Part shown: positions 29,118 through 61,824 of the stretch, piece by piece
Layout: the number at the start of each line of letters is the position of its first letter
How positions within the stretch are numbered: the stretch's first letter is position 1
IMG/VR virus record: IMGVR_UViG_3300027586_000002
Span: 1 to 64,000 of that record
Origin: a virus
Direction: 5' to 3' (one strand)
DNA: 64,000 bases
Notes under the pieces: model-generated
What the model was told of the DNA's origin: nothing
The model's database searches: none
Seen by the model: the letters and a program-made list of their open reading frames with translations, nothing else
Made by a program: the position numbers and the translations under genes

Positions 29118-30215
29118 ATGAGCGAGGAAACAGCAGCACAGAACCCAAGTCCAGCAACGATAGACCCTCTGAAACAGGAGGAAAATAAACATCGTAAGTT
29201 GGCCACCATACAGAAGATTCTATCACTTTCCCCAATACCTGACGCTGACATGATTGAGAAGGCACAGGTATTGGGTTGGGAGTGTGTGGTGAAGAAGGGC
29301 AGCTTTAAGCTTGGAGATGAGTGTGTCTATTTTGAAATAGACTCAATTATACCTAGAGCGCCATGGAATGATTTCCTAGCGAGCAAGGATAATCCCGAAA
29401 AGCCAATTCGGATAAAAACAGTAAAGCTTAGGAAACAAATATCACAAGGTATATGTTTTAAACTTGAAGATGTGCTTGATGGTTTTGCTATAATGCATAC
29501 CGAATGTGGGGATGATCTGACTGATTATCTTAATGTAACCAAGTATGAACCTCCAGCATTCGGAGGCAATAGTGCAGAACAATGTGCTGGTAACTTTCCT
29601 CATTACATTCCAAAGACAGATGAAGTCAGAATCCAGAGTGTTCCTGAAATACTTACAAAATATTATGGAGTAAAGACTTATGTCACTGAAAAAATAGACG
29701 GGCAAAGTTACACCGCCTTTGTTAATAAAGATGGTGAATTTGGTGTTTGTTCCAGGAACTTTAGGTTAAAGGATGTACCTACTAGCTCTCTATGGCAGAT
29801 AACCAAATCAATGCAGATAGAGGAAAAGTTAAGAAGTCTTGGCCGGCCTGTTGCATTACAAGCTGAACATGCTGGGCCTGGTATTCAAGGAAACAAGCTA
29901 GGGTTAAAAGAACGTACTCTGTTTGCTTATAACTTGTTTGATACAGCTACATTTAAGTATTTAAGTTTTTACGAGTTTAATGCTATATGCTTACAACTTG
30001 GAATACCAATGGTGCCATTAGTACATAACGGGCTTTCAATATTTAATCCTGTTGAAGAATGGGTTAAACTAGCTACAATGAAGTCCACCATCAACTCAGC
30101 GGTATGGGCAGAGGGTGTAGTAGTAAGACCATTAACTGAAGTAATAGACCAATCTCTTGGGAGATTATCGTTTAAGGTGATAAACCCCGAGTTTTTGTTA
30201 CAACATAAAGAATGA
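29118..30215 (+). CDS. RNA ligase, DRB0094 family
   Basis: LATIQKI..I..AD.IE.A.V.GW..VVKKG N-domain; PKTDE.RIQ; TEKIDG; SRN; QAE; EGVVVR; SFKVIN. Confidence 0.9.
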   Translation: MSEETAAQNPSPATIDPLKQEENKHRKLATIQKILSLSPIPDADMIEKAQVLGWECVVKKGSFKLGDECVYFEIDSIIPRAPWNDFLASKDNPEKPIRIKTVKLRKQISQGICFKLEDVLDGFAIMHTECGDDLTDYLNVTKYEPPAFGGNSAEQCAGNFPHYIPKTDEVRIQSVPEILTKYYGVKTYVTEKIDGQSYTAFVNKDGEFGVCSRNFRLKDVPTSSLWQITKSMQIEEKLRSLGRPVALQAEHAGPGIQGNKLGLKERTLFAYNLFDTATFKYLSFYEFNAICLQLGIPMVPLVHNGLSIFNPVEEWVKLATMKSTINSAVWAEGVVVRPLTEVIDQSLGRLSFKVINPEFLLQHKE

Positions 30216-32184: not shown

Positions 32185-33147
32185 ATGGACGAGAACGCTC
32201 TGTTTAATCTGCTTAAGGAGCGATATGGCAAGGTGTCTCGCGCAAGTGGGGGCTGGTTTCAAATACCGTGCCCCACTTGTAGTCCTAAGAACGCTAGAAA
32301 GATGAGGCGTTATGTTTCATACAAAAATCTATACACTAAATGTTGGATTTGTGAAACATCTATTACTAGGGAACAACTTCTAGGCCAGGCACTTATAGAC
32401 TATAAGCCATCCGCTTTAGTTCAAAACATTGAAAAAACAATAAATCCTTGGGCAAATAAATTGCCTTATAGAAAGAGTATAGCGGTCAATAAATTACCGG
32501 CCGAGCACCCTGCTGTTAAGTTCTTTAACAAAGATCACCTGATGGATATGGATAAACTGGCCATAGATCATGACATTGTTTATGTCCCATCTGATGGTGG
32601 TGTAATTTTTAGAGATAGAAAACCATTGATTACTTCTGCTGAGAGAGTCATATTTCCAGTGAAGTGTAATGCTGAGTTAGTAGGCTGGCAAATGCGCTCA
32701 ATTCCTAATACATTCTATGGCTCGCGTGAAGATGTGGTTCGCTATTATCATCTTTTTAATAAGGGAAATTTTCTATATAACTATGATACAGCTAAAAAGT
32801 ACCAGGTGGTGGTGGTCACGGAAGGTGTTAAAAAAGCGCTCAAATTCCCGAACGGCGTGGCCACACTAGGCAAAGGAATATCAAGCAAACAGTTAGATCT
32901 CATACAAGAATGGGACTTTATAACTTTGCTCTTAGATGGTGACGATAAAGGCCAAGAGGCAGCCGAGAAAGTAATGCGCTGTATAGAGAACGGACCAAAA
33001 ACGATTATAAATATAAACTTGATGGATTATGGTTATGAATCGCCCGATGACGCAACTAGTGAAGCGTTAGGAAAAATCGTTTCCGATGCGTGGATGGACC
33101 AATACCCAGACTCGGTTATAAAAAGCCAAAAGCCAGATATGACTTAA
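32185..33147 (+). CDS. dnaG: DNA primase (Zn finger + TOPRIM)
   Basis: CPTC...CWIC, RVIFP, GWQMR, VTEG, LDGD, PDD. Confidence 0.85.
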   Translation: MDENALFNLLKERYGKVSRASGGWFQIPCPTCSPKNARKMRRYVSYKNLYTKCWICETSITREQLLGQALIDYKPSALVQNIEKTINPWANKLPYRKSIAVNKLPAEHPAVKFFNKDHLMDMDKLAIDHDIVYVPSDGGVIFRDRKPLITSAERVIFPVKCNAELVGWQMRSIPNTFYGSREDVVRYYHLFNKGNFLYNYDTAKKYQVVVVTEGVKKALKFPNGVATLGKGISSKQLDLIQEWDFITLLLDGDDKGQEAAEKVMRCIENGPKTIININLMDYGYESPDDATSEALGKIVSDAWMDQYPDSVIKSQKPDMT

Positions 33148-33490: not shown

Positions 33491-33983
33491 GTATATAAGG
33501 TTTGCTAAGAAAACTATTCCTTATTACAAAGGCAGCGAAAAGCTTGAAGAGGCACTGGACAAAGCTGAAATATTGTGTGAAGGAAAAGACCCGGTATTGT
33601 GGGTTCAGGCGCAATACCGCTATAAGCCAAAAGATGAGTTTTACCCAAATAGCTTACATTATAGAAATGGCACACAGAATTATATAAAATATTTAAACAG
33701 CGCTTCAACAGAGGAAGACATGCTGTTCCAGGTACAACTACAGTATTTAAACAGTGCAGTAGAGAAGACAGGCAGATCTGATTTGGAAGTACTTTCAGAC
33801 ATCAATTTAGATTTTAAGCCGTGGTTTCGTGTGTTAATGACCAGGGAACCTGATGAGGAGCTTTTACAAAGATATGGTGCCGAGGCCAAAGACTGCATTG
33901 AACAGATACCAAAAATAAAAGCATTGTTAAAAAGAAACAATGTGAACCTAACTCGTTTATATGGAAAAGAACTTAATGGATAG
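33477..33983 (+). CDS. Hypothetical protein in the replication module
   Basis: Lies between primase and helicase; ATG at 33477 or 33480. Confidence 0.6.
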   Translation: MMRDEYIRFAKKTIPYYKGSEKLEEALDKAEILCEGKDPVLWVQAQYRYKPKDEFYPNSLHYRNGTQNYIKYLNSASTEEDMLFQVQLQYLNSAVEKTGRSDLEVLSDINLDFKPWFRVLMTREPDEELLQRYGAEAKDCIEQIPKIKALLKRNNVNLTRLYGKELNG

Positions 33984-35361
33984 CTCTGATTATTACGAGT
34001 TAATGCTCAGGCATTTGATTTGTGATTCAGAACTGTATAAAAAAGCTTTAAAGCTAGGCGTTACAGCTGACGACTTTTTAAGCAGCAGTGTTGGAGGCAT
34101 ACTAATATACAAGATTTTTGCTGAGATAGCTTTTGAGACTAACGCAACACCAATAAGCAAAGATCTATTCTTGCTGAAGCTAAAAGAGAAATTTGACAAG
34201 ACTCCATCTTTGGAAGGCAGAGCGGAATCTGCTGGAGAGCTATACGAGAAAGTATATGCGACTACTTTAGATTCAAAGTATGCAACAGATAATCTGAGGT
34301 TGTTTGTAAAGCGCCGACGCCAGCTAAAGGCCAAGCAAGAGCATTCAACTAATGAGGATGCGTTATTAACCGCGCTTAGTAACATAGAAAAAGACCTCTC
34401 TGGCAAGGAAGTGGCTGCGCTTGTAACAATTGACTACCCATTTAAGAAGTTACTAAAACAACAATTAACAAATTTAATACCTACAGGATTTGCCAGGATA
34501 GATACTGCTCTTGGCGGAGGAGGAATAGCTAAGGGAGAATACGGCTTGATAATCGGGTATACAGGTGGCGGTAAATCTGCCATGGCTGTTTGCATCGTCA
34601 GATCTAATGCCATACTTGGAAACAAGGCTGCATTTGTATCCATGGAAGAAACAACTGTCAATATCTCCAACAGATTGTACTCACAGGTGTTCAGGATTAA
34701 CTACTCTGACCTGCGCAGCGGTAAGGCTGGAATGGAGCTGGAACAACAGTTTAATGAAAACCCTGACAATCCACATAGAAGGTTGTTATCTGACAACCTG
34801 GCGTTGTTTGGCTTAAAAGAAGCTACTCCAATAACACCGGCAGCTATACTAGAGACACTTAGGAAACACTTTGATGATACAGGGTTTATTCCTGATGTCG
34901 TAGTTCTAGACCAGATGCAATTCATGGAGCCAAATGAAAAGAAGAAAAATGAAAGCTCATGGGATACTCAGGCCCGGCTTTCTCATGACTGCGATTGGTT
35001 GTCACATCAGACCATAGGAGGACAGCCGTTTGGATTGTGGGTCTTACATCAAGCCAAGGGCGGTAAGATGAGTAAGTTCTTTACCCATGCTGAGATATCA
35101 GGGTTTAAGGGAATTCTCCAGCCAGCCGATATAGCAATTGGTATAGGAAGAGAAGATCAAAAAAGCAAAGACTTCGGAATTTTCTCATTGAAGACCAGAC
35201 ATACTGCTGGCTTCGAAGTAGACTATGAAGGAGAACTTGAATACATGACGTTTAGAGATAGATTGGCGGGCACATTTGAAAACATAGAGGCATACCAGGG
35301 ACCCACGTCTAATCCTACAAGAGAAGAAATGCCTCATTTTAGAAATCCATTAATAGAATGA
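33961..35361 (+). CDS. dnaB: Replicative DnaB-like helicase
   Basis: IPTGF..ID..LGGG, GYTGGGKS, FVSMEE, VVLDQ, LHQ, K.R. Confidence 0.9.
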   Translation: MEKNLMDSSDYYELMLRHLICDSELYKKALKLGVTADDFLSSSVGGILIYKIFAEIAFETNATPISKDLFLLKLKEKFDKTPSLEGRAESAGELYEKVYATTLDSKYATDNLRLFVKRRRQLKAKQEHSTNEDALLTALSNIEKDLSGKEVAALVTIDYPFKKLLKQQLTNLIPTGFARIDTALGGGGIAKGEYGLIIGYTGGGKSAMAVCIVRSNAILGNKAAFVSMEETTVNISNRLYSQVFRINYSDLRSGKAGMELEQQFNENPDNPHRRLLSDNLALFGLKEATPITPAAILETLRKHFDDTGFIPDVVVLDQMQFMEPNEKKKNESSWDTQARLSHDCDWLSHQTIGGQPFGLWVLHQAKGGKMSKFFTHAEISGFKGILQPADIAIGIGREDQKSKDFGIFSLKTRHTAGFEVDYEGELEYMTFRDRLAGTFENIEAYQGPTSNPTREEMPHFRNPLIE

Positions 35362-38252
35362 ACAAAGAACCAGAAGTTATATTATATGATAGCGCAGGTG
35401 AAGCTATTGTGGTTCCTCCAGTAGAAGTAAAGGTCGAACCTCCTTATGTTAAGAAGCTGTTTGAGCATCATCACATAAATGGCAAGACCTGGTTTCCACC
35501 GAGAGGTAATACCAAGGCAAAGCTGATGCTGATTTTATCACATCCTGCTTTTGATGATCTAAAGAATAGATATTTGCTAAGTGGCGAAAACGAGCAAGAA
35601 GTAAGAGATGCATTGGCTGAAGCAGGAATCGCCTCATCAGAAGTGTATATCACGTCAATGGTAAAGTATGGACTTGGTACGGGATCAAAGGCTTCGGCTA
35701 CAAGTATAGCGGATTGTTCTGAGATGCTGGACTATGAAATTAACCTTGTAAAGCCTAAGTTAATAATGACTCTTGGTGCTGAGCCATTTAAGCGCATCAT
35801 GAAGGCTAACAGGAAGCAAACCGACTCTATAGGTGAGATTATTGACAGCCCGTACGGTAAGCATTTGGCCAATTATTCACCAGGAATGATCACTACTATT
35901 GACCCAAAGAAAAGATCAGTATTCCGTGACATCTTTGAGCTTGCTGGTAGATATATAAAAGATAAATTAAACTATACTCCTTTTGAGTATATTTTAGTGG
36001 AAGACCCCGCAGTTAATCGTGAAATAGTCGCACATTACATTGCCAATAATAAGCTCACTGTGGCTTATGATGGCGAATGGGAGACTGAGCATAGAATGAC
36101 TGACGGTGAAGTAATGTATACTTTTCAATATTGCTGCGAACCTAACAAGGCAATTATATTGAATCTATCCACAGATGGAGTTAATGAAAATAGAGAGTTA
36201 TTGGATACAATGAAGCCATTGCTTGAACATCCTAAGGCCGACCGATTAGGTTGGAACATCCGTGTGGACGACAAGCGACTGACAATAAGAGGATTCAATC
36301 TACCTGACGAAACGTTAGGCTTTGATGGCATGAAAGCAATGTCATTTATAGACAGCCGTTGGGCTAAGGGGCTGGAAACTGGACTGAAGAAGTTCACTAA
36401 CTACGCTCCTTATTACAACGCACTGTTTAAGATAGAAGCTGACAACAAAATTGATGCCAAGGACCTTGTTAAGGTAAGGTCTATAAATCCAGATGCTTAT
36501 CATAATTACTGTGCGGGCGATGCTGTGACTACTTATACAGCATGTATTAACATGAGGAATTGGATGAATAAGAATCTGCCTAAAAAACAGCTAGATTATT
36601 ATTTCAACACTTACTTGCCGTTATCCAATTATTTTAAAGATCTGGAATTGTCAGGCATACCTATTGATGTAAAGGTGATGGAGGAAATCACCGAAAAATA
36701 TACTACCAAATACATTGAATTAAAGGGCAAGCTTGATGCTTTACTAAAGCCTTATGGTTACGACCAAGTAAGCTATAATGAGTATATAAAAGAGCATACA
36801 GATGAAGAAGCTAAGACAGCCAATATAAGAGAATCGTTCAATCCTGCATCATCAATGCAAAAGAAGGAGCTTTTATTTGAGGTGTTAGAGTTGACTCCAG
36901 CTTATTATACAAAAGCAGGCAAGGCGGCAAAACCAAGAGCCTGGTGGGTGAAGCAAAAAGAAAAAAATCAGGAGAAGTATAAGCCTTCTTCAAACAGCAA
37001 ATCTCTATCTGCTCTTAAGTTCTCGATTGTCAGCGAAATGGAGAAACCCAAGGTTAAAAATAAAGTTGGGTTGGAAAGTAAGCATGAGATAATCGAAACG
37101 TTACTAGACTTGAATCGTGTAAGTGTCTTTTCTCAGAAGTTTTTGAGTAAGAAAGGAACATTGTACGAAGAGGAGGAAACTCATGAAGACGGGGAGGACC
37201 CGTTAAAGTCTTCTTACTGGGCAGCCATGTGCAAAGACCAAAAGGTACGTCCTGACTTTTTTGAATGTCTAAACAACTTCAGAAGCAGCTCAAAGGTTAA
37301 TGTACAAAACCCAGCTTCTAAAGTATTAAGCCATATACCAAACATATTTGTTCCTGGTTACGACTTAATGTCTAAAGAAGACAAGGCAGCTAACGAGCAT
37401 TTGATACCTAGAAATATTAGACATATCTTTTATTCTGGTGACCCTGATTGGTATTGGGTTGAATGCGACGTGGCGGGGGCTGACTTGGCTATTGCTGCAT
37501 TTTTATCTCAAGACCCAGAATATATACATGATATCTTGAAGGGCGGGTTTCACACCACCAAGATGCGCGAATACTTCAATGACCCTACACTTGATAAAGA
37601 CAAAGATATATCAAGATATGTTATAGCTAAGTCGATTACATTCAGAGTAGCTTATACTTCTGAGCTTTTGTCAGCAGCAATGCCGATTCAAGCGGAAATC
37701 TATTCTGAAAGCGGCAACAATGTTGATATAAAGACATTAGAGTATGCCTTGAAGACTTGGGAAAGATATAAAAAATATATAGATTACCGTGAGAACTGTA
37801 AAGCACAGGTAAGAGACTATAACTTTATAGAGAATGCCAGAGGTATAAAGTATCATTTTGAGGAAACTGAAAACTTCGGTGTACTGGCCGGATGGTTAAA
37901 CGAATCTTTGGCTTATCCAATAGCCAGCGAGTTAGCATTGTTTATCTGGGATGTGTCCGTTGCCACAAGGCAGCAGTTCATCAAAGACAAGGTTTGGATG
38001 AAATACGTCAAACCTGTAAACTCTGTTCACGATGCTGCTTATTGGATAATTCATAAGGACCTTATGAAGGACGACTACTTCCAAGAGGTGTGCAAGCACT
38101 ATTTTACACAACATTGTAGAATAGCAACTGGCGACCGTCTAGGTATGGAGATGAAGATTGCTGACCGCTGGAAAGCGGACAAGAAACACACTGTATTTAG
38201 TAAAGAAACAGTTTGGGACTTTAAGAATCATCATTGGAAATGGAAAGATTAA
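35358..38252 (+). CDS. polA: Family A DNA polymerase with N-terminal uracil-DNA-glycosylase-like and 3'-5' exonuclease domains
   Basis: UDG-4-like fold (G...AKLML, YITS.VK, EI.LVKPK.I.TLG); exonuclease YDGE, WNI..D, YCAGD; motif A ECDVAGAD, motif B R....K...F...Y, motif C VHDA. Confidence 0.9.
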   Translation: MNKEPEVILYDSAGEAIVVPPVEVKVEPPYVKKLFEHHHINGKTWFPPRGNTKAKLMLILSHPAFDDLKNRYLLSGENEQEVRDALAEAGIASSEVYITSMVKYGLGTGSKASATSIADCSEMLDYEINLVKPKLIMTLGAEPFKRIMKANRKQTDSIGEIIDSPYGKHLANYSPGMITTIDPKKRSVFRDIFELAGRYIKDKLNYTPFEYILVEDPAVNREIVAHYIANNKLTVAYDGEWETEHRMTDGEVMYTFQYCCEPNKAIILNLSTDGVNENRELLDTMKPLLEHPKADRLGWNIRVDDKRLTIRGFNLPDETLGFDGMKAMSFIDSRWAKGLETGLKKFTNYAPYYNALFKIEADNKIDAKDLVKVRSINPDAYHNYCAGDAVTTYTACINMRNWMNKNLPKKQLDYYFNTYLPLSNYFKDLELSGIPIDVKVMEEITEKYTTKYIELKGKLDALLKPYGYDQVSYNEYIKEHTDEEAKTANIRESFNPASSMQKKELLFEVLELTPAYYTKAGKAAKPRAWWVKQKEKNQEKYKPSSNSKSLSALKFSIVSEMEKPKVKNKVGLESKHEIIETLLDLNRVSVFSQKFLSKKGTLYEEEETHEDGEDPLKSSYWAAMCKDQKVRPDFFECLNNFRSSSKVNVQNPASKVLSHIPNIFVPGYDLMSKEDKAANEHLIPRNIRHIFYSGDPDWYWVECDVAGADLAIAAFLSQDPEYIHDILKGGFHTTKMREYFNDPTLDKDKDISRYVIAKSITFRVAYTSELLSAAMPIQAEIYSESGNNVDIKTLEYALKTWERYKKYIDYRENCKAQVRDYNFIENARGIKYHFEETENFGVLAGWLNESLAYPIASELALFIWDVSVATRQQFIKDKVWMKYVKPVNSVHDAAYWIIHKDLMKDDYFQEVCKHYFTQHCRIATGDRLGMEMKIADRWKADKKHTVFSKETVWDFKNHHWKWKD

Positions 38253-38358: not shown

Positions 38359-39426
38359 ATGACCCTGTATAATACCGTCGGTTCAGGCAAACAACTTAGG
38401 TTAGTCACCAATGAAGTTAATGTAGCCATTCTTGGTACTAAAATAAATGTGTTTACTGATATAACAGAAACACATTGGTTCTCATGGAACGAGGCTTTTT
38501 CCTTCATGGAGCTTCTATGCACTAAAGATTACAAGACAGCGTTAGCTGAATATATAATATCAGAAGGAGAAGATGTAGTATTAAAGCTTGATGATAATAA
38601 AAATGTAACTGGTTGTTATATATCTGAAAGATTGTTCTATAAGCTATTATTGACTAGAAGTAAAACCCAACACGCCCAGCAGATGAGTGCACTTCTATCT
38701 AAGAATGTGTTAACTGGCATGAGAAAGGCTGGGCATTTTACCATTAGCGATGATAACTTCAATAGCCTACCTTTAATATTCACAGAAATGCTAAGTATTG
38801 ATAATAAGATAATTAAAGCTAGTGAGGATGTTAAACCTGCCACACTAGTAACTAAACCGTTAAATAAAGACAGTAACCCATTAGACAAGCACCAGGAAGC
38901 TTCTGCTTCGCCGGTGACCAGAGACACAGTAACCATTAAATTAAATATGACCACACCCGAGACAAAAGCACCGCAGACAGATGTTGATGAAGTAGACCAA
39001 ATCATCCTCAAAGCAGGCTGCTTTGATAAGGCTAAAGATACGAAGAAAACACGTAACATCATAAGGTCTGTGATTCAAGCTGGGCCTGACGGTGTGCAAC
39101 TAGACACACTATGCCAGCAATTTGACATGGCTGCTCCAGAGATCAGTGGCTGGGACAATACTAGATTTCCAATACTGAAAGTTACTGCAGGCAGTAAGAA
39201 AAAGAAGCTAGTATGGCAAGGTAAATTCCCAGGGGATATCACCTTGGTCCAGGTCGGAACCGCCACAGCTCCTATGCTAGTAGCACCAACAGTACCAGTT
39301 CTTCCTCAGCAAGCTAACTACGCAGGCATTCGTAAGCCTACGGTTGCAGGTAATAAGTTTCAAGGGGTTACTAATAGTAAGCCAGGCATAACCGGCCCTG
39401 GTGATCATGTAGTTATAGCTGAATAA
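38359..39426 (+). CDS. Bro-N-like domain protein
   Basis: HWF...ISE..FYKLLL.RSK...AQQ.....NVL..MRKAG pattern. Confidence 0.6.
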   Translation: MTLYNTVGSGKQLRLVTNEVNVAILGTKINVFTDITETHWFSWNEAFSFMELLCTKDYKTALAEYIISEGEDVVLKLDDNKNVTGCYISERLFYKLLLTRSKTQHAQQMSALLSKNVLTGMRKAGHFTISDDNFNSLPLIFTEMLSIDNKIIKASEDVKPATLVTKPLNKDSNPLDKHQEASASPVTRDTVTIKLNMTTPETKAPQTDVDEVDQIILKAGCFDKAKDTKKTRNIIRSVIQAGPDGVQLDTLCQQFDMAAPEISGWDNTRFPILKVTAGSKKKKLVWQGKFPGDITLVQVGTATAPMLVAPTVPVLPQQANYAGIRKPTVAGNKFQGVTNSKPGITGPGDHVVIAE

Positions 39427-39548: not shown

Positions 39549-40283
39549 ATGTTAAAATTATCAAATAATAGCAAAACCAAATTCAAGTCATGTCATTTAA
39601 ATACCTTCGGTTTGATGTTCGGCCCCGAGGAAGCTGGAGGCACCTGTCCAGGTGCTACCAGCGGGCCAGGTGGATGTATTTCGCTTAAAAAATTAGGCGG
39701 TAAAGTTCGAACTTGCTATATGGATAAGCTTGTAAAGGCTTATCCCGCGCTAGGTAAAGTACTAACACACAATACAGATATCTTAAAAAACAAAACGGTT
39801 GATGAAATGGTAGTAATACTAAGATTGACCGTCTTGCATTTTATAGAAGAGAGTGACAATACAGACCTATATTTCCGTCTGCATTACTCTGGAGATTTTT
39901 TCTCAATCGATTATGCTAAGGCATGGAGTATAGTTATAAAAGAGTTTAAACAGGTACAGTTTTGGGTATACACCCGATCTTTTATAGACGAACTAAATGT
40001 CTTGCCGTTTTTGGTTGATAACGATAATTTGACCCTGTTTCTATCAGTAGATCCTGTTAATAAAGAACTGGGGTTTAAAGCATATGAACCTTACAAAGAT
40101 AAAAAAAATGTAGGGTTAGCTTGGATGGGAAATACGAAACCAGAAAGTTATAGATGGGTTACTTGCCCTGAAACTTCTGGTAAAATAAGTAATAAACCCA
40201 ATATGGGGGCTTGTGGAAAATGCAGGCTGTGTGTTGACAATTACAACCACAAAGTCAAAAATATACAATTTTTGATACATTAA
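39549..40283 (+). CDS. GP88-family (radical-SAM-like) phage protein
   Basis: TCPGAT...C...CY, YFRLHYSGDF, FWVYTRS, LFLSVD, CP...ACGKCRLC. Confidence 0.8.
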   Translation: MLKLSNNSKTKFKSCHLNTFGLMFGPEEAGGTCPGATSGPGGCISLKKLGGKVRTCYMDKLVKAYPALGKVLTHNTDILKNKTVDEMVVILRLTVLHFIEESDNTDLYFRLHYSGDFFSIDYAKAWSIVIKEFKQVQFWVYTRSFIDELNVLPFLVDNDNLTLFLSVDPVNKELGFKAYEPYKDKKNVGLAWMGNTKPESYRWVTCPETSGKISNKPNMGACGKCRLCVDNYNHKVKNIQFLIH

Positions 40284-40304: not shown

Positions 40305-41036
40305 ATGAAAACTGTAAAACTCAAAATCTGCAACGAACACGGTGACACCCAAAAAGAAGTCACTCAGACTGCTGCAGTTGAAGAAATCATAAATGAACAT
40401 TTTAAAAATGGACGCTGGGTCTACGTTGGTTCTAACGCAGTAAGCTTTACTGCTTCAAACCCAACAGACAGCAAGTTGGCAGCAGATCGCGCCGAAATTT
40501 CCAAGCTTCTTGACGATATGGAGAACCCGATGGTAATCATGACAGGGGATCTTGTGGGTGGGGCGACTAAAAGCAAGACCAAGTGCAAGTCACGCTCGGC
40601 AACGGCCGAGGGAACAAACGCGAAAAGTCTTAGCTCCGGCCGGTATCCTACCTCCTGCAAAAAAGTTGGTTGTGTAAAAAATGATGCGACTGGTCGGCCT
40701 ATTATTCAATTTGGGTATAAGCCTGCCTATCTTCCAGAAGGATTTGAGACCAAGGACCTTGGGGCAAGCACATCACTAAACTTTGGTTCAGGTTCTTCAG
40801 TGACGTTGACCCGTGGGCCTCTGTCTAAGGTATTCAACTCTCATCGCACACCGCAGCTTGCGGTTAGCGTGCAGATGATTGGCGGACAAGAAACAGTTAA
40901 TGTTATGGTCACCGACTACAAGGGCTCTCTTGCTCGTTTGAAGAGGCACCTTGGCTTCATCTCTGCGTCAATCAATGAGGTGCTAGACGACGAAGTAGTT
41001 ACCCGCGCTTATATGCCTGGCAGCAGGATATTCTAA
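40305..41036 (+). CDS. Ubiquitin-like (beta-grasp) precursor: 86-aa domain ending LVGG plus a C-terminal extension
   Basis: Strand-strand-helix-strand pattern; final strand MVIMTGDLVGG (GG at 40557-40562); low-complexity linker follows; JAB and E1 lie downstream. Confidence 0.6.
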   Translation: MKTVKLKICNEHGDTQKEVTQTAAVEEIINEHFKNGRWVYVGSNAVSFTASNPTDSKLAADRAEISKLLDDMENPMVIMTGDLVGGATKSKTKCKSRSATAEGTNAKSLSSGRYPTSCKKVGCVKNDATGRPIIQFGYKPAYLPEGFETKDLGASTSLNFGSGSSVTLTRGPLSKVFNSHRTPQLAVSVQMIGGQETVNVMVTDYKGSLARLKRHLGFISASINEVLDDEVVTRAYMPGSRIF

Positions 41037-41063
41037 TTGCTTACAGCTGTAAGCTTCAATAAC

Positions 41064-41097
41064 AAAGCCTGCTCAGGTTAACTGAGCAGGCTTTATT
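41064..41097 (+). terminator. Strong hairpin / terminator between the Ubl gene and the rest of the cassette
   Basis: AAAGCCTGCTCAG-GTTAA-CTGAGCAGGCTTT. Confidence 0.75.
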
Positions 41098-41117
41098 TAC
41101 TAGTATTATCTCAAATT

Positions 41118-43100
41118 ATGCAATACACAGAATTTAAAAAATACGCCAAGTTATATGAATCATTACATAAAAATGAGCTCAAGTTTAATATAAATTTTAT
41201 CACTATACCGAGCTACATGATTAGCGAAACGAATAATCCATGTAACACTCTAATGGTTCCGAAGTTTCTTGAAGTAGATAAGCTATCATCTATAGCTGAT
41301 ATATTTCAGAACCTGCACGCCCCTGTACCTAGAAGTTATATGGAGCTAGGCACAGCAGCTAAAAAACTTGTGTGCGGCCTGCCGATGATGACCTCCAATG
41401 CCTCCGCTGAAAAGGTAACTTCTGAACTGGCCAAAAGTCCTAATTCTCCAGTTAAATATTTTTCAGCGGCGCTGGATAAGAAATATCTCAATAACATTAA
41501 TTTATCAAGTTATGGTCTATTTGATTTTAGGCATATCTATTTAATAAAAGCACCTCCATTGGAACAAATGGAAAAGGATAAGACTTACAGGTTGTTAACT
41601 GACTCCGGAAGTAATGTAATAGCCTGTGTAGATCATAGCCATAAGCTCTATAAGTATCTAGATAAAGGGCATGTGCTTGTTTTTGCACCCGACAAAAAAG
41701 CCGAAGTTCCTTATATTGTGACCAATCAGCTTACCTTGGATGTTTGTTGTTTAATTGGGTTATATCAAATTTACTCTGATAAAATATCAGAAGTCTTACA
41801 AGATGGAATATTTCTAAGAGCCGGCGACGCAAGGATTGCTTTATTTAAAGCGGAGAAGGCTTTGCCAGATAGATTCCACACTGAGTATCAAAAGCTTAAA
41901 GCCGGTATACTTAAAGATTTTGAGAACAGTGCTCAAGCTATAACACTTAACAAGCTTCAAAGAGGTGAGTTAACCGATATAGTTCTTAATGACATCAAGA
42001 TTAGAAAAAACAAAGTTGAATACGAAAACGTTTCAATTGAGTCAGACTTGCTAGGAGAAAATGTCTTTAATAAGCTGGATGGTACAGCGCAGTTCAACAT
42101 ATACGACATTCTTACTATCCTTGCCAATGACACTGAAAACTGGCTTGGAACTCGTCCAACAACTAATCATATAGGTGAAAATGGTAGAATGAATCAAGCT
42201 ATGCGCTTTGACAAAAACTATTCCAGGACTATTAAAGTCAATGGAATGGAAATAGTGGCCTCTGTCAAAGATACCTGTTCTGCACGTTATGTTAATGGAA
42301 TAAGAATCAATCATAACGAAATAGCTAGGGTTCTTAACAGGGCTACATGCTATCATGATATTAACCAGTATAATTTGTTTCTAAAAGAAGTGAATAAACT
42401 TTCATTGGCTGCACACGACCTCTTGATAAACGGCCAGACTGTAAAGCTAAACCAATCCGCATATGATGACTACCATGCAGCTAAGGGTGGTGTATCACAG
42501 CCTAAGTTCAAATATAGCAGAGGCAACGATGGTGAATATCTATTACATGTTGGAGACAATGATAAAGTTAAACTACATAGGTTTGTAACTTTCCTTCATG
42601 ACATAGCAGCATTAAACCTCAAAGCTAATAATGGCTATATAGGATATGGTCATCCTGACCAAAATGAGTTTAAACACAGGGATGCAAATTGGTTAAAAGC
42701 CAAAATAACAACTCTTATATTACACCACTCGGTTAAGTCACAAAAAGATAACCCAACTATAAAAATACCTGATTTTAAAGATTACTTTAAATGGATTAAA
42801 GACACCCAGGCTCTAGCCGAACTAAAGGCTAAGAAACTTTTAGAAGACACTATGCTCATGGTTGGTGCAACCCATGCCTATCAGGGAGATATGGAAGGCT
42901 ATGAAGTTAAAGGCAACATTAAAACATATTTTATAGATAAGAAGACTAACCGTGTATTTGATACCAAATCAAAGCAAAACATCTGCATCGTCAATGGCAA
43001 GGCCGAGATGGGAATAGGGGCTGACGCAGTTGTCGCATTACTACTTGCTTTGAAGAATGACAGCAGGAGAGTAGACGCGATACAAACATTGAAATTATGA
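41118..43100 (+). CDS. 660-aa protein of the Ubl cassette; candidate E2-like or target component
   Basis: ATGA-coupled to JAB; C-terminal V.G..TY.I...ICIV...D....LLAL.ND..I domain containing a Cys. Confidence 0.5.
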   Translation: MQYTEFKKYAKLYESLHKNELKFNINFITIPSYMISETNNPCNTLMVPKFLEVDKLSSIADIFQNLHAPVPRSYMELGTAAKKLVCGLPMMTSNASAEKVTSELAKSPNSPVKYFSAALDKKYLNNINLSSYGLFDFRHIYLIKAPPLEQMEKDKTYRLLTDSGSNVIACVDHSHKLYKYLDKGHVLVFAPDKKAEVPYIVTNQLTLDVCCLIGLYQIYSDKISEVLQDGIFLRAGDARIALFKAEKALPDRFHTEYQKLKAGILKDFENSAQAITLNKLQRGELTDIVLNDIKIRKNKVEYENVSIESDLLGENVFNKLDGTAQFNIYDILTILANDTENWLGTRPTTNHIGENGRMNQAMRFDKNYSRTIKVNGMEIVASVKDTCSARYVNGIRINHNEIARVLNRATCYHDINQYNLFLKEVNKLSLAAHDLLINGQTVKLNQSAYDDYHAAKGGVSQPKFKYSRGNDGEYLLHVGDNDKVKLHRFVTFLHDIAALNLKANNGYIGYGHPDQNEFKHRDANWLKAKITTLILHHSVKSQKDNPTIKIPDFKDYFKWIKDTQALAELKAKKLLEDTMLMVGATHAYQGDMEGYEVKGNIKTYFIDKKTNRVFDTKSKQNICIVNGKAEMGIGADAVVALLLALKNDSRRVDAIQTLKL

Positions 43101-43612
43101 CTGAATCATTAAAGCTAGCATTAGACGAAGCCATGGCCTACGCCGCCCCATTTATAGAAATGGAGTGCGGCGGGGTCATACTTAAATCAAAAGAAGCAGA
43201 GGAGTATAAGTTCATCCCACTTCTTAATAAGCATAAAGACACAGCTAAATCAGCCGGGCTTTATGAAGTAGACAGAACAGACTTTGGTAAACAAGTTATA
43301 CCCTTACTAACATCTGGATATAATAACTACGCAAGCTTTCATACACATCCTATTGGGTGTGATACCAATCCAAGCTCCATAGATTTTACAAAACTGTTTA
43401 AAGGATTTCCAACCAATTTTATATTCTCGCCATCAACTAAAGCCTTGAGCCAATATGATTTTGTCCCTGGTACTACCATGGAGGAGATTTTTGGTAGCGG
43501 CAAAGGTGGGGAAAATACCTTATTGTTTGTTGAAAATTTAGAAGATAAGTTAGATGGACCTAAAATTGAATCGGCTTGGAACTTAACTAAACTACGCAAT
43601 GAGCAAACTTAA
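43097..43612 (+). CDS. JAB/MPN+ (JAMM) metalloprotease
   Basis: ECGGVIL ... FHTHP-x-PSSID (E...HxH...SxxD). Confidence 0.88.
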   Translation: MTESLKLALDEAMAYAAPFIEMECGGVILKSKEAEEYKFIPLLNKHKDTAKSAGLYEVDRTDFGKQVIPLLTSGYNNYASFHTHPIGCDTNPSSIDFTKLFKGFPTNFIFSPSTKALSQYDFVPGTTMEEIFGSGKGGENTLLFVENLEDKLDGPKIESAWNLTKLRNEQT

Positions 43613-44192
43613 AATAGCAATAGCTGGAGCAGGAGGCATTGGTGGCTATGTGGCAGGTCAATTATATGAATACGGGCTTAACCGTAGGCAATTTGATTTT
43701 GCTGGCATGGACATAACTGTGTATGACGACGACACAGTTGATGCCTCCAATCTTTTACACCAGAACTTCTCAGAAGCTGATCTGGGGCAAAAAAAAGCGA
43801 AATTGATTGCCGACCGGTATTATCTAACAGCAGAGCTTAACAGAATGACCGTAGAGGACTTTGCTAAGTATGATGTGATATTTTGTTGTGTAGATAATAT
43901 GGTATTCAGGAAAAAGCTTTATGAGTATGGTTGGGCTCACCCTAATAATATTTTCTGGATTGATGGGCGTTGCTCCAGCCGAAATATAGGGTTGTTCAAC
44001 TCACAACTAGGCAGGAATGAACTTTCATCTGAGTTAAATGATAGCGTTGCTTCTGGAGGATGCCTATTGGCTCATGATAAAGAGGCCAAAGTTTCACATG
44101 TTACGCCCTTGACAATCGCCAGCATGATGACGCAAGCTTTCTTGAATTACTTGCGTAAGGAAGGTACTGGCAAAGTAAAATTATATCTATAA
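43599..44192 (+). CDS. ThiF/E1 adenylyltransferase
   Basis: IAGAGGIGG, YDDDTV..SNL.HQ, DLG.KKA, CCVDN..FR, IDGR, GGCL. Confidence 0.9.
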   Translation: MSKLKIAIAGAGGIGGYVAGQLYEYGLNRRQFDFAGMDITVYDDDTVDASNLLHQNFSEADLGQKKAKLIADRYYLTAELNRMTVEDFAKYDVIFCCVDNMVFRKKLYEYGWAHPNNIFWIDGRCSSRNIGLFNSQLGRNELSSELNDSVASGGCLLAHDKEAKVSHVTPLTIASMMTQAFLNYLRKEGTGKVKLYL

Positions 44193-44476
44193 TGATTGGA
44201 ACATTGGCTAGTAACAACAAAGCCATTTTAGAGAAGATCTTGATGAAAAAGTTGAGCCTTATAGCGAAAGCTGTGGGGCTCAACCTTCCAGAATGGGATA
44301 TTGATAAATCTCTTTATCTTGCAATAAGAAAGTCTAATAAGTTGACTAGTGCTGCAATAACGTGTATTGAATACAGTGCAATTATTGAAGCCGCAACATT
44401 GATGAAATTAAAAATAAATCCGAACTTTTACTGGTTTAACAATCTAGAACAGTTCAATAACACAAAAAATAAATAA
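44192..44476 (+). CDS. Hypothetical protein coupled to E1
   Basis: TAATG overlap; 94 aa. Confidence 0.5.
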   Translation: MIGTLASNNKAILEKILMKKLSLIAKAVGLNLPEWDIDKSLYLAIRKSNKLTSAAITCIEYSAIIEAATLMKLKINPNFYWFNNLEQFNNTKNK

Positions 44477-44477: not shown

Positions 44478-45482
44478 ATGGCAATAATTAAACCGTCTTT
44501 GAATTTCGAGGGCAGCGATCTATCCAGCTTCAATGCTGGCTCAATTGTAAGATCTGACGTCCCGACCATAGACTTTAAAACAGAGAAAGCCAAGCAAGGG
44601 CTGTATCTCTATATTCTTCCACCTTATAAATTAGACGCTGCTGGGAATGGCGTATGGTTTAAAGTGGTAAAAATTCGTGATAACTTTGGTATTGATATCA
44701 AAGAGAAATTCCCAGTTCAGAAAAACTGCCCTGTTGAGTTCTTTGAAAATAAGGTAAAGTTACTTTTCCCAGATTATGCAAGAGTCGACAAGATCGTCAA
44801 AGATGGTCGCGATATCAAGCAGTATCCTTCGTATGGTAGAACGACGAAGAGAGTTATATTCAACGCAGCATATTATGACGCGTTTGAAAAGGGCGCTCAC
44901 GTTTTGGATATACCGCAATCAGGTGCGGCTGAAGTTATCGACAATTTTCACCGCAGAGTGGGTCCGAGTGGTAAGCTAACCCAAATGGTGAATGATCCCA
45001 GTGGTGCTGCTGCGTTGTTCTTCAGGTTGAAGCCGGCTGCGGAGAGCAAGGGCAATCCGTGGGAAGTAATCATCCAGTCCAATGAGCGTTCAGCTTTACC
45101 AACTGAGTTGTCAGACAGCGAATACCTACATGACCTTGATGATGTACTAGTTAAGAAGAATACTGATGAGCTTATAGAAAAACTCAGAATGTATACTCCT
45201 AATGAGATATTTGAAGCCTGCCTGAAGGGGTACAGTAAGGACTTTGTCACCAAGACAGCCATGACGTCATCGCCTAGCTGCGCGCTCCCGCCTGTATTAG
45301 AAACCTTGGCTACAAAGCCAGCTCCAGTCGGTCTCAACATACCTAAGATCAGGCGCAATGACCCCGCTCCAGTAGCACAAGAAGAAGCAGTTGAGCAGGA
45401 AGTCGTTATACCGCCGGCGTGGGCGAACACCGGCCCGGCAAGCAGGAAAGCAGCAGTTGATTTCTTGAATAAGAAAGTTTAA
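44478..45482 (+). CDS. Probable single-stranded DNA-binding protein (gp32-like)
   Basis: YILPP, CP.E, FN, DP..G, L..L.DL pattern with a disordered tail; directly upstream of recA. Confidence 0.55.
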   Translation: MAIIKPSLNFEGSDLSSFNAGSIVRSDVPTIDFKTEKAKQGLYLYILPPYKLDAAGNGVWFKVVKIRDNFGIDIKEKFPVQKNCPVEFFENKVKLLFPDYARVDKIVKDGRDIKQYPSYGRTTKRVIFNAAYYDAFEKGAHVLDIPQSGAAEVIDNFHRRVGPSGKLTQMVNDPSGAAALFFRLKPAAESKGNPWEVIIQSNERSALPTELSDSEYLHDLDDVLVKKNTDELIEKLRMYTPNEIFEACLKGYSKDFVTKTAMTSSPSCALPPVLETLATKPAPVGLNIPKIRRNDPAPVAQEEAVEQEVVIPPAWANTGPASRKAAVDFLNKKV

Positions 45483-45529: not shown

Positions 45530-46744
45530 ATGCCAATAGAAGAACTTATATCGTTAACAAAAAAGCAATTCGAAAAACAGAACAAGGACTCGGAGATGCA
45601 GTTCCTTTATGCCAAGGATGAACCTCCGGCATCAGGGCTGGTGATTGATAACCCACAACTAGAGTATATACTTGATAGACGGTTTCTGGCTTACGGTAGA
45701 TGCTACTTGTTCTATGGTAAAAAAGGTGCATCTAAAACCAGCTTGTTCTTAGATATAGCTAAAGCTTTTCAAAAACAAGGTGGTGATGTTATATGGATAG
45801 AAACAGAACATGCCATTGACCTTGATTTTGCCAAGAAACAGGGAGTCAATTTAGACAAGTTAGTATTGCTTCATCCTTCATCATTGGAAGAAGCTTTAAG
45901 CTTGGCTGAACAGATTGTTAGAAACATGCCTAAGGCTTATCCTGATGGCAATACACCGGTACTCATATGTCTGGACTCAATAGCTGGGTCAGTTACTGAG
46001 TATGAGGTAGATACATCACACAGCGTAAGAGACGTAAAACCAGGTGAGCATGCCAGGCTATTAAGCAGGTTCTATCGTGAGTTTGAAAGACCGCTTGCAA
46101 AGGAGCGTTGTATATTCTTAGCCCTAAACCAGCTTAAAGTATCTATAGGTGGCTTTGGAGGGTTTGGTGAAGAACCACCGGAATCCATGATTGGTGGCGA
46201 GGCTCCTAGATTTCATTCTACTTACCAGCTTAAGATAGTTAGGACTAAAGATCTGACTTACGAAACTGACAAGCATGAAAAGATTAAGATAGGTTCAAGA
46301 CACCAGATTACCTGCAAGCGTAACAAGCTTGGTAAAGAAGGTAATTCACAGAATGTAGAATTCGATTTGTATATCGACGGCGGCATTGACTGGTACGGTC
46401 CATTGGTTCGAAGAACAGCTAAATTCTATCCTGAAGTTATTAGTTCAGGAGGGGCAGGCTGGTATAATTGGAATGTACCGAACATTCATTATACTACTGG
46501 TGAAGGCGGCAACGAGCTTATATCCACAGAAGATAACTATAGAGAGCCAGACTTAGCCAGACTTATTAGCTCCAGCCCAGAAGCTAAGGAAGTTATTAGA
46601 AAGTGTTTAAAGATACCTGATCTACCTCCAGAGAAAGTAATCGCTCAGTTAGAAGTCGCCAGGTTGTCGAAAAGAAAAACCAAGAAAAGTCTTGAAGAAG
46701 AACCTGGAGTATCTAGACTAGTCGAGGAAGATCCAAGTGAATAA
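45530..46744 (+). CDS. recA: RecA/UvsX recombinase
   Basis: YGKKGASKT, WIETEHAID, LDSIAG, HARLLS, LNQLK, GGEA..F, KRNK. Confidence 0.92.
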   Translation: MPIEELISLTKKQFEKQNKDSEMQFLYAKDEPPASGLVIDNPQLEYILDRRFLAYGRCYLFYGKKGASKTSLFLDIAKAFQKQGGDVIWIETEHAIDLDFAKKQGVNLDKLVLLHPSSLEEALSLAEQIVRNMPKAYPDGNTPVLICLDSIAGSVTEYEVDTSHSVRDVKPGEHARLLSRFYREFERPLAKERCIFLALNQLKVSIGGFGGFGEEPPESMIGGEAPRFHSTYQLKIVRTKDLTYETDKHEKIKIGSRHQITCKRNKLGKEGNSQNVEFDLYIDGGIDWYGPLVRRTAKFYPEVISSGGAGWYNWNVPNIHYTTGEGGNELISTEDNYREPDLARLISSSPEAKEVIRKCLKIPDLPPEKVIAQLEVARLSKRKTKKSLEEEPGVSRLVEEDPSE

Positions 46745-48056: not shown

Positions 48057-48521
48057 ATGGTCGTCGAGAACACCGGCACAGCAGAATATATAGTAGTACA
48101 GAAGCTGGCGTCACACTTTAAAGTAAAGAAAGATGAGCTTTACAAGGAAGTCCGACAGCAACAAGAAGAAAGAGGAGACAAGCTGGTATATGCTCCCAGT
48201 TTGTATGAAAAGTACGACTTCTTTTTTAAGCTTAGATGCATACAAGCTCCAAAGTTAAACCTGGAAGACATACTAAACTATAAGAAGTTCATAAAGACAA
48301 AGATATACCAAGACTTTGTACAATATGAGCCAGATGATAAACATTGCTTCGCAATGGCTTTGGTTCTGGTTGGTACAGTATGGCTTATATATAGAAGCAA
48401 AGAAGTTTATGATGGGTCAGGAGCTATCATCCTAAACGACTCTGAAAACTTCTATAATTCCATCCGTATAACGCCTATTCAAAACTACTTGTCAGATGAA
48501 TTCTCACACAAAGAACAATGA
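48057..48521 (+). CDS. Hypothetical protein
   Basis: 154-aa ORF. Confidence 0.55.
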   Translation: MVVENTGTAEYIVVQKLASHFKVKKDELYKEVRQQQEERGDKLVYAPSLYEKYDFFFKLRCIQAPKLNLEDILNYKKFIKTKIYQDFVQYEPDDKHCFAMALVLVGTVWLIYRSKEVYDGSGAIILNDSENFYNSIRITPIQNYLSDEFSHKEQ

Positions 48522-49749
48522 CCCAGTTTTAGATATACAGAGATTCCTTTTTAATGGAGGAACTCTGGACCAGCTTAGAGAACAATATAAGTTAATAATA
48601 GTTGAACATGAAGATGGTAGAGTAATGTTTAATTATGATCAGATAGACTCTCCAAGAGGTGAAATGATATGCCAGGAATCTAGAGGGCTTATCTTGGAGA
48701 AAGGAACATGGGAACTAGTATCGCTAGGCTTTCATAGATTTTTCAACTCAGAAGAACTACCCTATGCGCACACACTTGATTTTAATTCTCAAGTAAGGGC
48801 TTTTCCAAAGATTGATGGTTCTTATGTATCAATGTATTACTATAAGGGCCAATGGAGGTTTTCTACTAGAGGTAGCATTGACGCATCTGGCAGTGTCGGA
48901 GACTTTCCGTTTACGTTTAAAGAGCTAATAGATAGCGTAAAGCCTAGTAACTTTACAGACTATTCATTACAAACTTCCGTAGATTTTACTTATATATTTG
49001 AGCTAGTCTCTCCGTATAACAAGATAGTGACCCCATATGAAAAGGCTGAGCTTATACTTATAGGGGCCAGAAAAGTAAGAGACACAGAATATTCATTGGC
49101 TGTTCCTATAGGCTTTGAGCTAGATTATAAATCACTCGGAGCAATAGCTATATATTTTGGCGTAAAGTTCTATGAAGGGGTAGACATATCTAATCTACTT
49201 GCGGTCATTAATCTTATAGCAAACATTAAGCCTACAGACGAAGGGTTTGTTGTGGTAGAACAGACTAACTCTGTAAGAGGGTTTAGAAGAGTTAAAATGA
49301 AGAACGCCTCATATGTAGCCCTTCATCATTTAAAGTCATCTGATGGTTGCAAGAATTTAGCTGTCATACTACAGAAGGATGAAGACTCAGAGGTAGCCTC
49401 CCTGTTACCAGAACTTAAGCAGCTATTAGATACAGCTAGAAATAAAATAGAACAATTAATTGTAGTATTAAATAATCAGTATGAGCTGGCCAACCACGTA
49501 GCAGATAAGGAGTTGGAGCCTAGAGCTAAGAGGAAAATATTTGCTGAGAATGCTCTAACATCTGCTGTTCCTGGTTTTCTATTTGAAAAGTATAATAAAC
49601 CAGCGCTAGGGTTTAGAGAGATAATTAGAACAGCGCAACCTGATAAGATAGCAGAGTTGATAGGGCTAAAAAACATAAAGCTATCTGTGTTTAATCAGAA
49701 GCAGGAGCGCACCCTCCCTCCCGCCCCACCGACCCCCATAGCTAGCTAG
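48496..49749 (+). CDS. T4 Rnl1-like RNA ligase
   Basis: ESRGLIL, RFFN, PKIDGS, STRG, FELVSP.N.IV..Y, EGFVV, RVKMKN..Y. Confidence 0.9.
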   Translation: MNSHTKNNDPVLDIQRFLFNGGTLDQLREQYKLIIVEHEDGRVMFNYDQIDSPRGEMICQESRGLILEKGTWELVSLGFHRFFNSEELPYAHTLDFNSQVRAFPKIDGSYVSMYYYKGQWRFSTRGSIDASGSVGDFPFTFKELIDSVKPSNFTDYSLQTSVDFTYIFELVSPYNKIVTPYEKAELILIGARKVRDTEYSLAVPIGFELDYKSLGAIAIYFGVKFYEGVDISNLLAVINLIANIKPTDEGFVVVEQTNSVRGFRRVKMKNASYVALHHLKSSDGCKNLAVILQKDEDSEVASLLPELKQLLDTARNKIEQLIVVLNNQYELANHVADKELEPRAKRKIFAENALTSAVPGFLFEKYNKPALGFREIIRTAQPDKIAELIGLKNIKLSVFNQKQERTLPPAPPTPIAS

Positions 49750-61442: not shown

Positions 61443-61449
61443 CCCTTTT

Positions 61450-61785: not shown

Positions 61786-61824
61786 CTAGGCGTACCAGTT
61801 TGACTCCGCCTGCCCCAACCTTTT

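Follow-up and report, generated by a model that had tools for sequence, protein, structure and literature searches.

Known ubiquitin-like systems and the phage cassette

Ubiquitin-like (Ubl) conjugation in bacteria has so far been characterized as cellular anti-phage defence, in the Bil, Bub and type II CBASS systems. Here we describe a cassette at positions 40,305 to 44,476 of IMGVR_UViG_3300027586_000002, an IMG/VR virus record of 106,940 bp that stems from a large, uncultured freshwater phage and has a CheckV completeness of ~52%; the first 64 kb of this record (64,000 nucleotides, G+C ~0.39) are the window analysed throughout. The cassette encodes the precursor of a putative tag with a Gly-Gly (GG) motif, a 660-aa protein with a likely E2-like end, a JAB/JAMM metallopeptidase and a minimal E1. 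From sequence comparisons and predicted models, we consider that it probably, though far from certainly, specifies a phage-encoded ubiquitin-like conjugation pathway. All four genes lie on the plus strand at the coordinates given in the preliminary description of this DNA, together with the following elements:

40305-41036, plus strand: tag precursor, 243 aa
40305-40562, plus strand: predicted Ubl domain, residues 1-86 of the precursor (AF2 model, fold matches)
40563-41036, plus strand: extension 3' of the GG, 157 aa
41064-41110, plus strand: terminator-like hairpin (inverted repeat, folding energy)
41118-43100, plus strand: 660-aa protein, putatively E2-like
43097-43612, plus strand: JAB/JAMM metallopeptidase, 171 aa (Pfam Prok-JAB, motif)
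43599-44192, plus strand: minimal E1, ThiF-type adenylation domain, 197 aa (Pfam ThiF)
44192-44476, plus strand: small conserved open reading frame (ORF), 94 aa (homologs in related loci)

The last three of the four genes overlap in series as had been reported, the E2-like and JAB genes by 4 nt (ATGA) and the JAB and E1 genes by 14 nt, and the E1 gene shares 1 nt with the 94-aa ORF. The overlaps suggest that translation of the E2-like protein, JAB and E1 is coupled. The 94-aa ORF, which lies inside the range of the cassette and was not named in the preliminary description, had no family match in profile scans; it is accessory to the kit, and the GP88 gene upstream is outside the core kit.

The cassette belongs to none of the Bil, Bub, CBASS and PRTRC systems. 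The Bil system, class 6d of Iyer et al. 2006, consists of the Ubl BilA, the E2 BilB, the JAB BilC and the E1 BilD (PMC11601596; PMC1779556). Like Bil, the cassette has four separate genes, for a Ubl with C-terminal Gly, a Cys-bearing E2-like protein, a JAB and an E1, with no E3 gene, and one of the chains that residues 564-660 of the 660-aa protein match in fold is a Bil E2 (8tyz_C). Unlike Bil, it is phage-encoded and lies in a replication module, its E1 is one 197-aa adenylation domain instead of the IAD-AAD-CYS architecture of the Bil E1 (PMC11601596), its E2-like domain forms the end of a 660-aa protein from a new family, and its tag is fused to a putative cargo. The PADLOC Bil models gave no match to the cassette.

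In the type I Bub system (BubAB, BubCD, BubE), BubCD's JAB domain cleaves the fusion protein BubAB directly after a conserved Gly (PMC11601596). The phage tag would likewise be made as a fusion and cut after Gly by the JAB of its own cassette, and a chain from a Bub complex, 9eav_D, ranks with the best fold matches to the 660-aa protein's C-terminal domain. Bub forms Tyr/Ser oxyesters without a catalytic Cys and fuses JAB to E1 and Ubl to E2, whereas in the cassette Cys155 of the E1 and Cys623 of the 660-aa protein are invariant and the genes are separate; a Pfam scan found DUF6527/BubE among none of the cassette ORFs. Type II CBASS (the E2-E1 fusion Cap2 and the JAB Cap3) uses E1, E2 and JAB chemistry similar to that proposed here, and Cap2 (7to3_A) is also a fold match. 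In contrast to CBASS, the cassette has a predicted beta-grasp tag and keeps its E1 and E2-like proteins unfused, and no match to the CD-NTase family was found in the cassette or neighbouring ORFs.

The SAMP/UbaA/JAMM1 and TtuB/TtuC/TtuD systems each join a small GG protein of the beta-grasp type to a JAMM protease and a minimal E1 that resembles MoeB; residues past the GG are trimmed, and the proteins double as sulfur carriers. The cassette differs from them in that a Cys-bearing UBC-like domain, as predicted, is always linked to the other genes, and sulfur-relay genes were not found in the 107-kb record. With PRTRC (plasmids, integrative and conjugative elements) it shares carriage on a mobile element, and PRTRC_ThiF (TIGR03736) is the best NCBIfam match of the E1 (2.2e-15), followed by ThiF enzymes. 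The match reaches 56.7 bits against a cut-off of 144.75 and covers only positions 10-142 of 245, and the other PRTRC protein models matched no cassette protein.

Among phage proteins, the lambda/T1 tail protein TAPI consists of a Ubl, a linker and a small C-domain, and TAPK of a JAB and an NlpC/P60 domain (PMC1779556). The cassette resembles this pair in having a phage Ubl in which a Gly is conserved and which continues into a low-complexity linker and a small C-domain, beside a JAB predicted to cut after the Gly. Unlike the cassette, which lies in a replication module and has no NlpC/P60 domain, TAPI and TAPK lie in the tail module without E1 or E2-like proteins. crAss-like phages (PQ006092.1 73755-77818, L003) carry adjacent JAB-domain and E1 genes beside primase and uracil-DNA glycosylase (UDG) genes, also in a replication module; their JAB-domain protein has 401 aa with the JAB at its N-terminus, and its gene overlaps the E1 gene. 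Identity of their E1 to that of the window is only ~27%, and the neighbouring crAss proteins have no profile similarity to the 660-aa family. Since crAss-like phages have such a pair, phage-borne E1/JAB pairs are not confined to the clade of the window. Xanthomonas/Erwinia jumbo phages (L004, PV764601.1) have a ThiF gene beside topoisomerase genes, and public records mostly label the E1 genes of crAss-like and jumbo phages 'thiamine biosynthesis protein'. Kinship of the 660-aa family with the ThiF-neighbour proteins of the crAss-like phage and the Xanthomonas jumbo phage was considered and rejected, as profile comparison showed none.

The four genes co-occur in related viral loci

Comparative genomics provides the strongest evidence in this analysis. 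Related loci were fetched with sub-alignments of the 660-aa family, which yielded, with contig repeats set aside, a single locus from a metagenome (L002) plus 30 distinct loci from viruses, on contigs of 25-215 kb. Scans of viral and genome contig sets with alignments of close homologs only gave no match. At these 31 additional loci the four genes occur together, arranged in two different orders, so that the synteny sought beyond the window is present. Twenty-six loci are arranged as PolA-GP88-(variable)-Ubl-E2-like-JAB-E1-(94-aa ORF)-334-aa protein-RecA-RuvC-like. Homologs of the 94-aa ORF occupy this position in 14 related loci and are absent from L002 and several others, and about ten loci (L005:9376-10044, L007:9277-9972 and about eight more) have an additional gene, for an RNase H-fold exonuclease (~220 aa, DnaQ/PolB-exo-like), after the E2-like gene and before the JAB gene. 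The genes of a distant clade (L030, L032-L034, L040) run E2-like-Ubl-JAB-E1. They are flanked by genes for a class II ribonucleotide reductase, a sigma-70 factor and PolA, with no GP88 beside the kit; the interval from tag to E1 in L030 yielded no JAB gene. The order and surroundings of the genes differ between the two clades yet the kit persists, indicating that the four genes stay linked. Judged from these gene maps, the co-occurrence is far beyond chance.

The tag precursor has the pattern of a protease-matured modifier

The precursor begins, as originally described, with an 86-aa domain that ends in DLVGG and is followed by 157 aa; residues 79-90 are MTGDLVGGATKS, G85-G86 are encoded at nt 40557-40562, and the surroundings of the GG read ...MTGDLVGG/ATKSKTK... 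Both glycines are invariant in 24 of 24 aligned orthologs and are also present in 6 more. The tag gene in relatives is usually stand-alone, encoding 69-156 aa. Its ORF ends exactly at the GG in six loci (L011, L019, L023, L030, L032, L033) and one residue past it in two (L034, L036), and in most others 2-13 unconserved residues follow. An invariant GG with anything or nothing behind it is expected if proteolytic trimming stops at the GG and leaves its carboxylate as the reactive group. On the alignments, the pattern of the tag is that of a protease-matured modifier, and the earlier reading of the gene as a Ubl-GG precursor fits the invariant GG and the orthologs that finish at or shortly past it.

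To examine the fold of the tag, an AlphaFold2 (AF2) model was built from seven sequences. It is confident only at residues 1-82 (predicted local distance difference test, pLDDT, 72-90), for which the predicted order is strand-strand-helix-strand-helix-strand. Fold comparison of residues 1-86 with VIA-align over 48,161 chains returned almost exclusively beta-grasp domains. The best was a PB1 domain (4mjs, Z 5.9, root-mean-square deviation 2.6, 68 aligned), and the HOIL-1L UBL, ISG15, SUMO1, ubiquitin and a Caldiarchaeum Ubl followed at Z 4.1-4.7; ISG15, SUMO, ubiquitin and UBL domains as a whole spanned Z 4.1-4.9. Foldseek against the PDB gave the model no significant E-value, with SUMO, PB1, ISG15, FAT10 and UBX domains in the top rows. 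The beta-grasp fold first proposed for residues 1-86 is therefore upheld by the AF2 model and VIA-align and not by the Foldseek E-values; we regard the tag as a predicted beta-grasp protein, the Z values being modest. The 24 tag orthologs had no match to the ubiquitin, ThiS, MoaD, Prok_Ub or PRTRC_C profiles (Pfam, NCBIfam, E<=1), and a PDB sequence search with the tag gave no match.

In the extension past the GG, a basic Ser/Thr/Lys linker of variable sequence (~residues 87-149) leads into a small C-terminal domain that is conserved (~150-243). Close homologs of the precursor, at 87%, 57% and 40% identity, retain the N-domain, the GG and the C-terminal domain. Across P0002, P0003, L002 and L027 the linker is variable, with a duplication in L002, and the C-domain is kept. 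A C-domain of this type occurs only in the clade of the window, L002 and L027, and the stand-alone Ubl orthologs are without it. The AF2 model of the extension is of low confidence and gave mixed matches at Z 4-5 (gelsolin-like, KH-like, ribosomal). We consider the extension a putative 'cargo' that would be released from the tag. The tag ortholog of L035 (L035:5016-5696) has an unrelated acidic extension of ~110 aa past its GG, apparently a second type of Ubl-cargo fusion that is independent of the first. Because the last K/R before the GG is K67, the tryptic remnant has 19 residues (LLDDMENPMVIMTGDLVGG) and trypsin-based GG-remnant proteomics is unsuitable for this tag.

JAB peptidase and E1 have invariant motifs

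The JAMM motif attributed to ORF 43097 is complete: the ORF contains FHTHPIGCDTNPSSID (HxH...SxxD, nt 43340-43384) and an upstream Glu (E21/E23), and H82, H84, S93 and D96 are invariant in 25 orthologs. The Pfam Prok-JAB profile (PF14464) matched with an E-value of 2.2e-5 and 24.7 bits, against a gathering cut-off of 25.

The E1 is a stand-alone ThiF domain, as had been recognized, with GGCLL at C155 (nt 44061-44063) and no CxxC pair; GAGGIGG, NLLHQN and FCCVDN are also present. It matched Pfam ThiF (PF00899) at 7e-16, with 58.5 bits against a cut-off of 28.1. GAGGIG, R29, D43, D45, NLLHQN, K66, D99, C125 and C155 are invariant (19-24 orthologs), a set that includes the Gly-rich ATP loop, the Mg-binding Asp and two Cys, and mean column identity across the orthologs is 73%. 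Relatives of ~198 aa form at least 780 clusters, many of them on ~200-kb contigs, and JGI labels these proteins 'molybdopterin/thiamine biosynthesis adenylyltransferase'. The nearest solved relatives by profile are the NEDD8 E1 catalytic subunit and a bacterial ThiF-type protein (E ~1e-4). Co-folding of the E1 with Ubl residues 1-86, ATP and Mg gave a score of 0.25, against a mark of 0.32 for a verdict.

The 660-aa protein ends in a likely E2-like Cys domain

Family-profile scans gave no family match for the 660-aa protein. When 1.84 billion representatives were searched with a profile, 467 cluster representatives matched at E<1e-3, 301 of them at E<1e-10, and most were 600-770 aa long; this is a large, new family without a name. 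In an alignment of 64 members with a mean column identity of ~19%, R158, D182, C411, G439, G599, Y604, C623, D648 and T657 are invariant; the codons of Cys411 and Cys623 lie at nt 42348-42350 and 42984-42986. The AF2 model made from this alignment had a pLDDT of 88.4 and a predicted template modelling score (pTM) of 0.74.

When this model was compared with VIA-align, nearly all matches fell within residues 564-660 (nt 42807-43097) and belonged to one fold class, UBC/RWD-like, at Z 3.2-5.0. The matches included the UEV domains of VPS37A, Vps23 and Tsg101 (Z 5.0-4.7), the E2 enzymes Ubc9, UBE2F, UBE2E1, UbcH5c and Ubc13 (Z 4.3-3.7), and the RWD domains of GCN2, Knl1, FANCL and Mediator. Bacterial matches were 9eav_D (Z 4.5), the D chain in a complex of Citrobacter BubCD, BubB and BubA, Cap2 7to3_A (Z 4.0) and the Bil E2 8tyz_C from an E1-E2-Ubl complex (Z 3.2). 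The predicted C-terminal topology is a long helix (552-582), four strands (585-615), a loop and three short helices (636-659); Iyer et al. give a helix, four strands and helices as the pattern of E2 domains (PMC1779556). Foldseek against the PDB found no significant match for the 660-aa model. A search of BFVD returned three viral proteins at ~1e-8, without name or function.

Cys623 (NICIVNG; family consensus Y-I-C-I-V-D/N) lies in the loop after strand 4 and is kept in the 64 members and in the distant clade. In the model this is the position of the E2 catalytic Cys. Weak matches to Pfam DUF7737 were found in 8 of the 64 members, on the same C-terminal domain, and our literature search found DUF7737 in no paper. 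No recognized fold was found for the N-terminal ~560 residues. The C-terminal ~100 residues are thus likely, on the predicted structure, to be an E2-like Cys domain, and with the 660-aa partner as an E2-like carrier the cassette can be read as complete in form. A relation of the 660-aa protein to cGAS was rejected as noise, since it appeared only at E ~0.1 in the PDB sequence search and was split into 8-bit pieces.

A proposed pathway and its alternatives

If the cassette is a conjugation pathway, the JAMM peptidase would first cut the 243-aa precursor after Gly86 to give an 86-residue GG tag and a 157-aa product, as the comparative pattern and the precedent of BubCD suggest. The E1, in which the motifs are seen, would then adenylate the Gly-Gly carboxylate with ATP/Mg and perhaps load the tag onto Cys155. 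The predicted fold, residue conservation and gene linkage together point to Cys623 in the UBC-like domain as the next site to which the tag would move. The N-terminal part of the 660-aa protein would probably select the substrate, and Cys411 may relay the tag. In the last step the tag would be joined to a target. Because the kit adjoins PolA and other replication or nucleotide genes in two distant clades, replication and recombination proteins of the phage or the host could be the first candidates, on weak grounds. The fullest version, in which a widespread clade of large freshwater phages runs a complete Ubl pathway during infection, the JAB freeing tag and cargo, the E1 charging the tag and a 660-aa E2/E3 hybrid relaying it through C623 and then C411 onto replication/recombination or host proteins, is a tentative picture that we regard as possible and hold with considerable doubt.

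Several observations weigh against a conjugation pathway. The E1 is a minimal ThiF/MoeB-like domain, of a kind that also serves sulfur carriers, and the E2 assignment is based on fold matches of Z 3-5, which can reflect a mere common arrangement. Neither a UQ_con nor a Prok-E2 profile matched the 660-aa protein, and no HPN motif precedes Cys623. The ESM Atlas features of this protein show a weak leaning to the Rep proteins of plasmids (0.91-0.94; 162-186 features in common); this lead was accompanied by no iteron-like repeats nearby and no winged-helix fold match. Finally, the record is ~52% complete, so that there may be partner genes outside it.

The best-surviving alternative is a system that works without an E2, similar to archaeal SAMP/UbaA/JAMM or Thermus TtuB/TtuC, in which the minimal E1 would by itself activate the tag and pass it to acceptors on proteins, to sulfur acceptors or to both, and the 660-aa protein would be a main target, an adaptor or a replication protein regulated by the tag. 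To our knowledge, the SAMP and TtuB systems work without an E2. A single MoeB/ThiF-like domain of 197 aa as E1 would fit such a system. So would the low Z values of the UBC-like matches, as RWD and UEV folds are often non-catalytic, the Rep-like ESM features, and the constant position of the kit within replication or nucleotide modules. However, the 64 diverse members all keep Cys623, at the site where an E2 would be expected to have its Cys. In addition, the 660-aa gene appears translationally coupled to the JAB and E1 genes and stays linked to them despite changed gene order and neighbourhood, and the lack of iteron-like repeats speaks against the Rep form of the explanation. On balance we judge it unlikely, while giving it more weight than any other rival of the conjugation pathway.

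In the preliminary description, sulfur transfer involving the upstream GP88 gene was named as the alternative; here the GG, exposed by the JAB and adenylated by the E1, would become a thiocarboxylate and donate sulfur to a phage cofactor, a nucleotide or a DNA/tRNA modification, possibly with GP88. GP88 is the 244-aa product of the gene just upstream of the kit in the PolA-linked clade (Pfam GP88 2.3e-26), and its seven Cys (C33, C43, C56, C206, C222, C225, C228) are invariant in 17 orthologs and may bind metal or Fe-S clusters. The radical-SAM-like label given to it could not be confirmed; no solved relative was matched, and our literature search found nothing on GP88. A sulfur carrier would also be in line with the ThiF/MoeB-like E1 and its next-best NCBIfam matches, with the tRNA genes of the phage, and with known sulfur-assimilation clusters that combine JAB, E1 and ThiS/MoaD-like proteins (PMC1779556). 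Nevertheless, no ThiS/MoaD pathway genes were found in the ~52% complete record, as first noted for the surroundings of the kit, and the 107-kb sequence gave no Rhodanese, Aminotran_5 or ATP_bind_3 match and hence no rhodanese, cysteine desulfurase or PP-loop ATPase, although host enzymes could serve. The explanation is further weakened by the distant clade, which has the kit without an adjacent GP88, and by the tag, which matches no ThiS/MoaD profile, and it accounts neither for the fused cargo domains nor for the 660-aa protein, which is always linked and carries a UBC-like domain with a Cys. We consider it improbable. Least probable is a counter-defence role, in which the kit would mimic or jam host Bil or type II CBASS by tag removal through the JAB or by mis-tagging and would have no part in replication: host Bil and CBASS do use the same enzyme classes against phages (PMC11601596) and the E1 has weak PADLOC matches to CBASS E1-E2 models (best 3.4e-8), but the kit is a stable set at a fixed place in the replication module in 31 other loci, whereas anti-defence genes are usually variable and accessory, and a lone deubiquitinase would be enough to strip host tags.

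A hairpin with conserved position follows the tag gene

Returning to the cassette, a hairpin with a 13-bp stem and a 5-nt loop (41064-41094), followed by UUUAUUU (41064-41110 in all), lies between the Ubl and E2-like genes. It folds with -31 kcal/mol (z -5.7), and 0 of 200 shuffled sequences folded as well. In most related loci (L005-L028, L035, L036) this position is likewise occupied by a GC-rich hairpin with a U tract, unrelated in sequence. Judging from this arrangement, the hairpin is probably an intrinsic terminator or attenuator whose position is conserved. It would end the transcript 3' of the tag gene, and the tag could then be made in excess over the enzymes. Promoter-like matches were no commoner than in shuffled sequences. 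Contigs of at least 99% identity span the whole stretch in four lake metatranscriptome libraries, from which neither strand nor level is readable and in which DNA carry-over is uncontrolled.

Genomic neighbourhood of the cassette

Near-identical DNA is present in many lake and freshwater metagenomes, and none of the deposited phages is close to the window. In DNA and protein searches, no deposited phage matched the region, the JAB, the 660-aa protein or two distant members of its family, and the E1 had only distant matches. The genes around the cassette, labelled from Pfam and PHROG matches, are as follows:

26959-29019, plus strand: SbcC-like ATPase (Pfam/PHROG)
29118-30215, plus strand: RNA ligase, PHA02142-OB/RNA_ligase type (Pfam/PHROG)
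30212-31681, plus strand: helicase (Pfam/PHROG)
32185-33147, plus strand: Toprim primase (Pfam/PHROG)
33961-35361, plus strand: DnaB-like helicase (Pfam/PHROG)
35358-38252, plus strand: PolA with an N-terminal UDG domain (Pfam)
38359-39426, plus strand: protein with weak PHROG anti-repressor matches
39549-40283, plus strand: GP88-family protein
44478-45482, plus strand: 334-aa protein without family match
45530-46744, plus strand: RecA (Pfam)
48496-49749, plus strand: second RNA ligase, T4 Rnl1 type, downstream of RecA

The cassette had been placed between the polymerase and SSB/RecA. Pfam confirmed PolA and RecA on either side, and the SSB label for 44478-45482 is unconfirmed. Two different RNA ligase genes lie within this one replication/repair block, a pairing that suggests a capacity for tRNA or RNA repair. 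The record also contains a full-length tmRNA gene (11008-11419; Rfam 135.8 bits), the tag peptide of which ends ...VELAA, and tRNA-Gly, tRNA-Ala and tRNA-Lys genes at 61370-63501. At the 5' end of the window, from which it runs off, ORF 2-2218 starts with ~150 residues of (Thr6-8-Pro)n followed by a Gly/Ala/Thr-rich region; this repeat-rich ORF raises the local G+C to 0.55, and its product may be a fibre or adhesin.

Significance of a putative phage-owned Ubl kit

A literature search of incomplete coverage found no description of a phage-encoded kit of Ubl, E2-like protein, JAB and E1. If the pathway proposed here is true, it would be the first full Ubl tagging system shown in prokaryotic viruses. 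The kit itself offers as objects of study a very small E1 of 197 aa, a new family of large proteins with an E2-like end and natural Ubl-cargo fusions, and its components are small, soluble-looking and testable in E. coli. The kit lies among core replication genes and is common to hundreds of metagenomic relatives. A complete-looking kit owned by phages would reverse the picture of bacterial Ubl conjugation as defence only, and would mean that bacterial viruses tag proteins in order to drive or safeguard their own replication, just as ubiquitin is exploited by viruses of eukaryotes.

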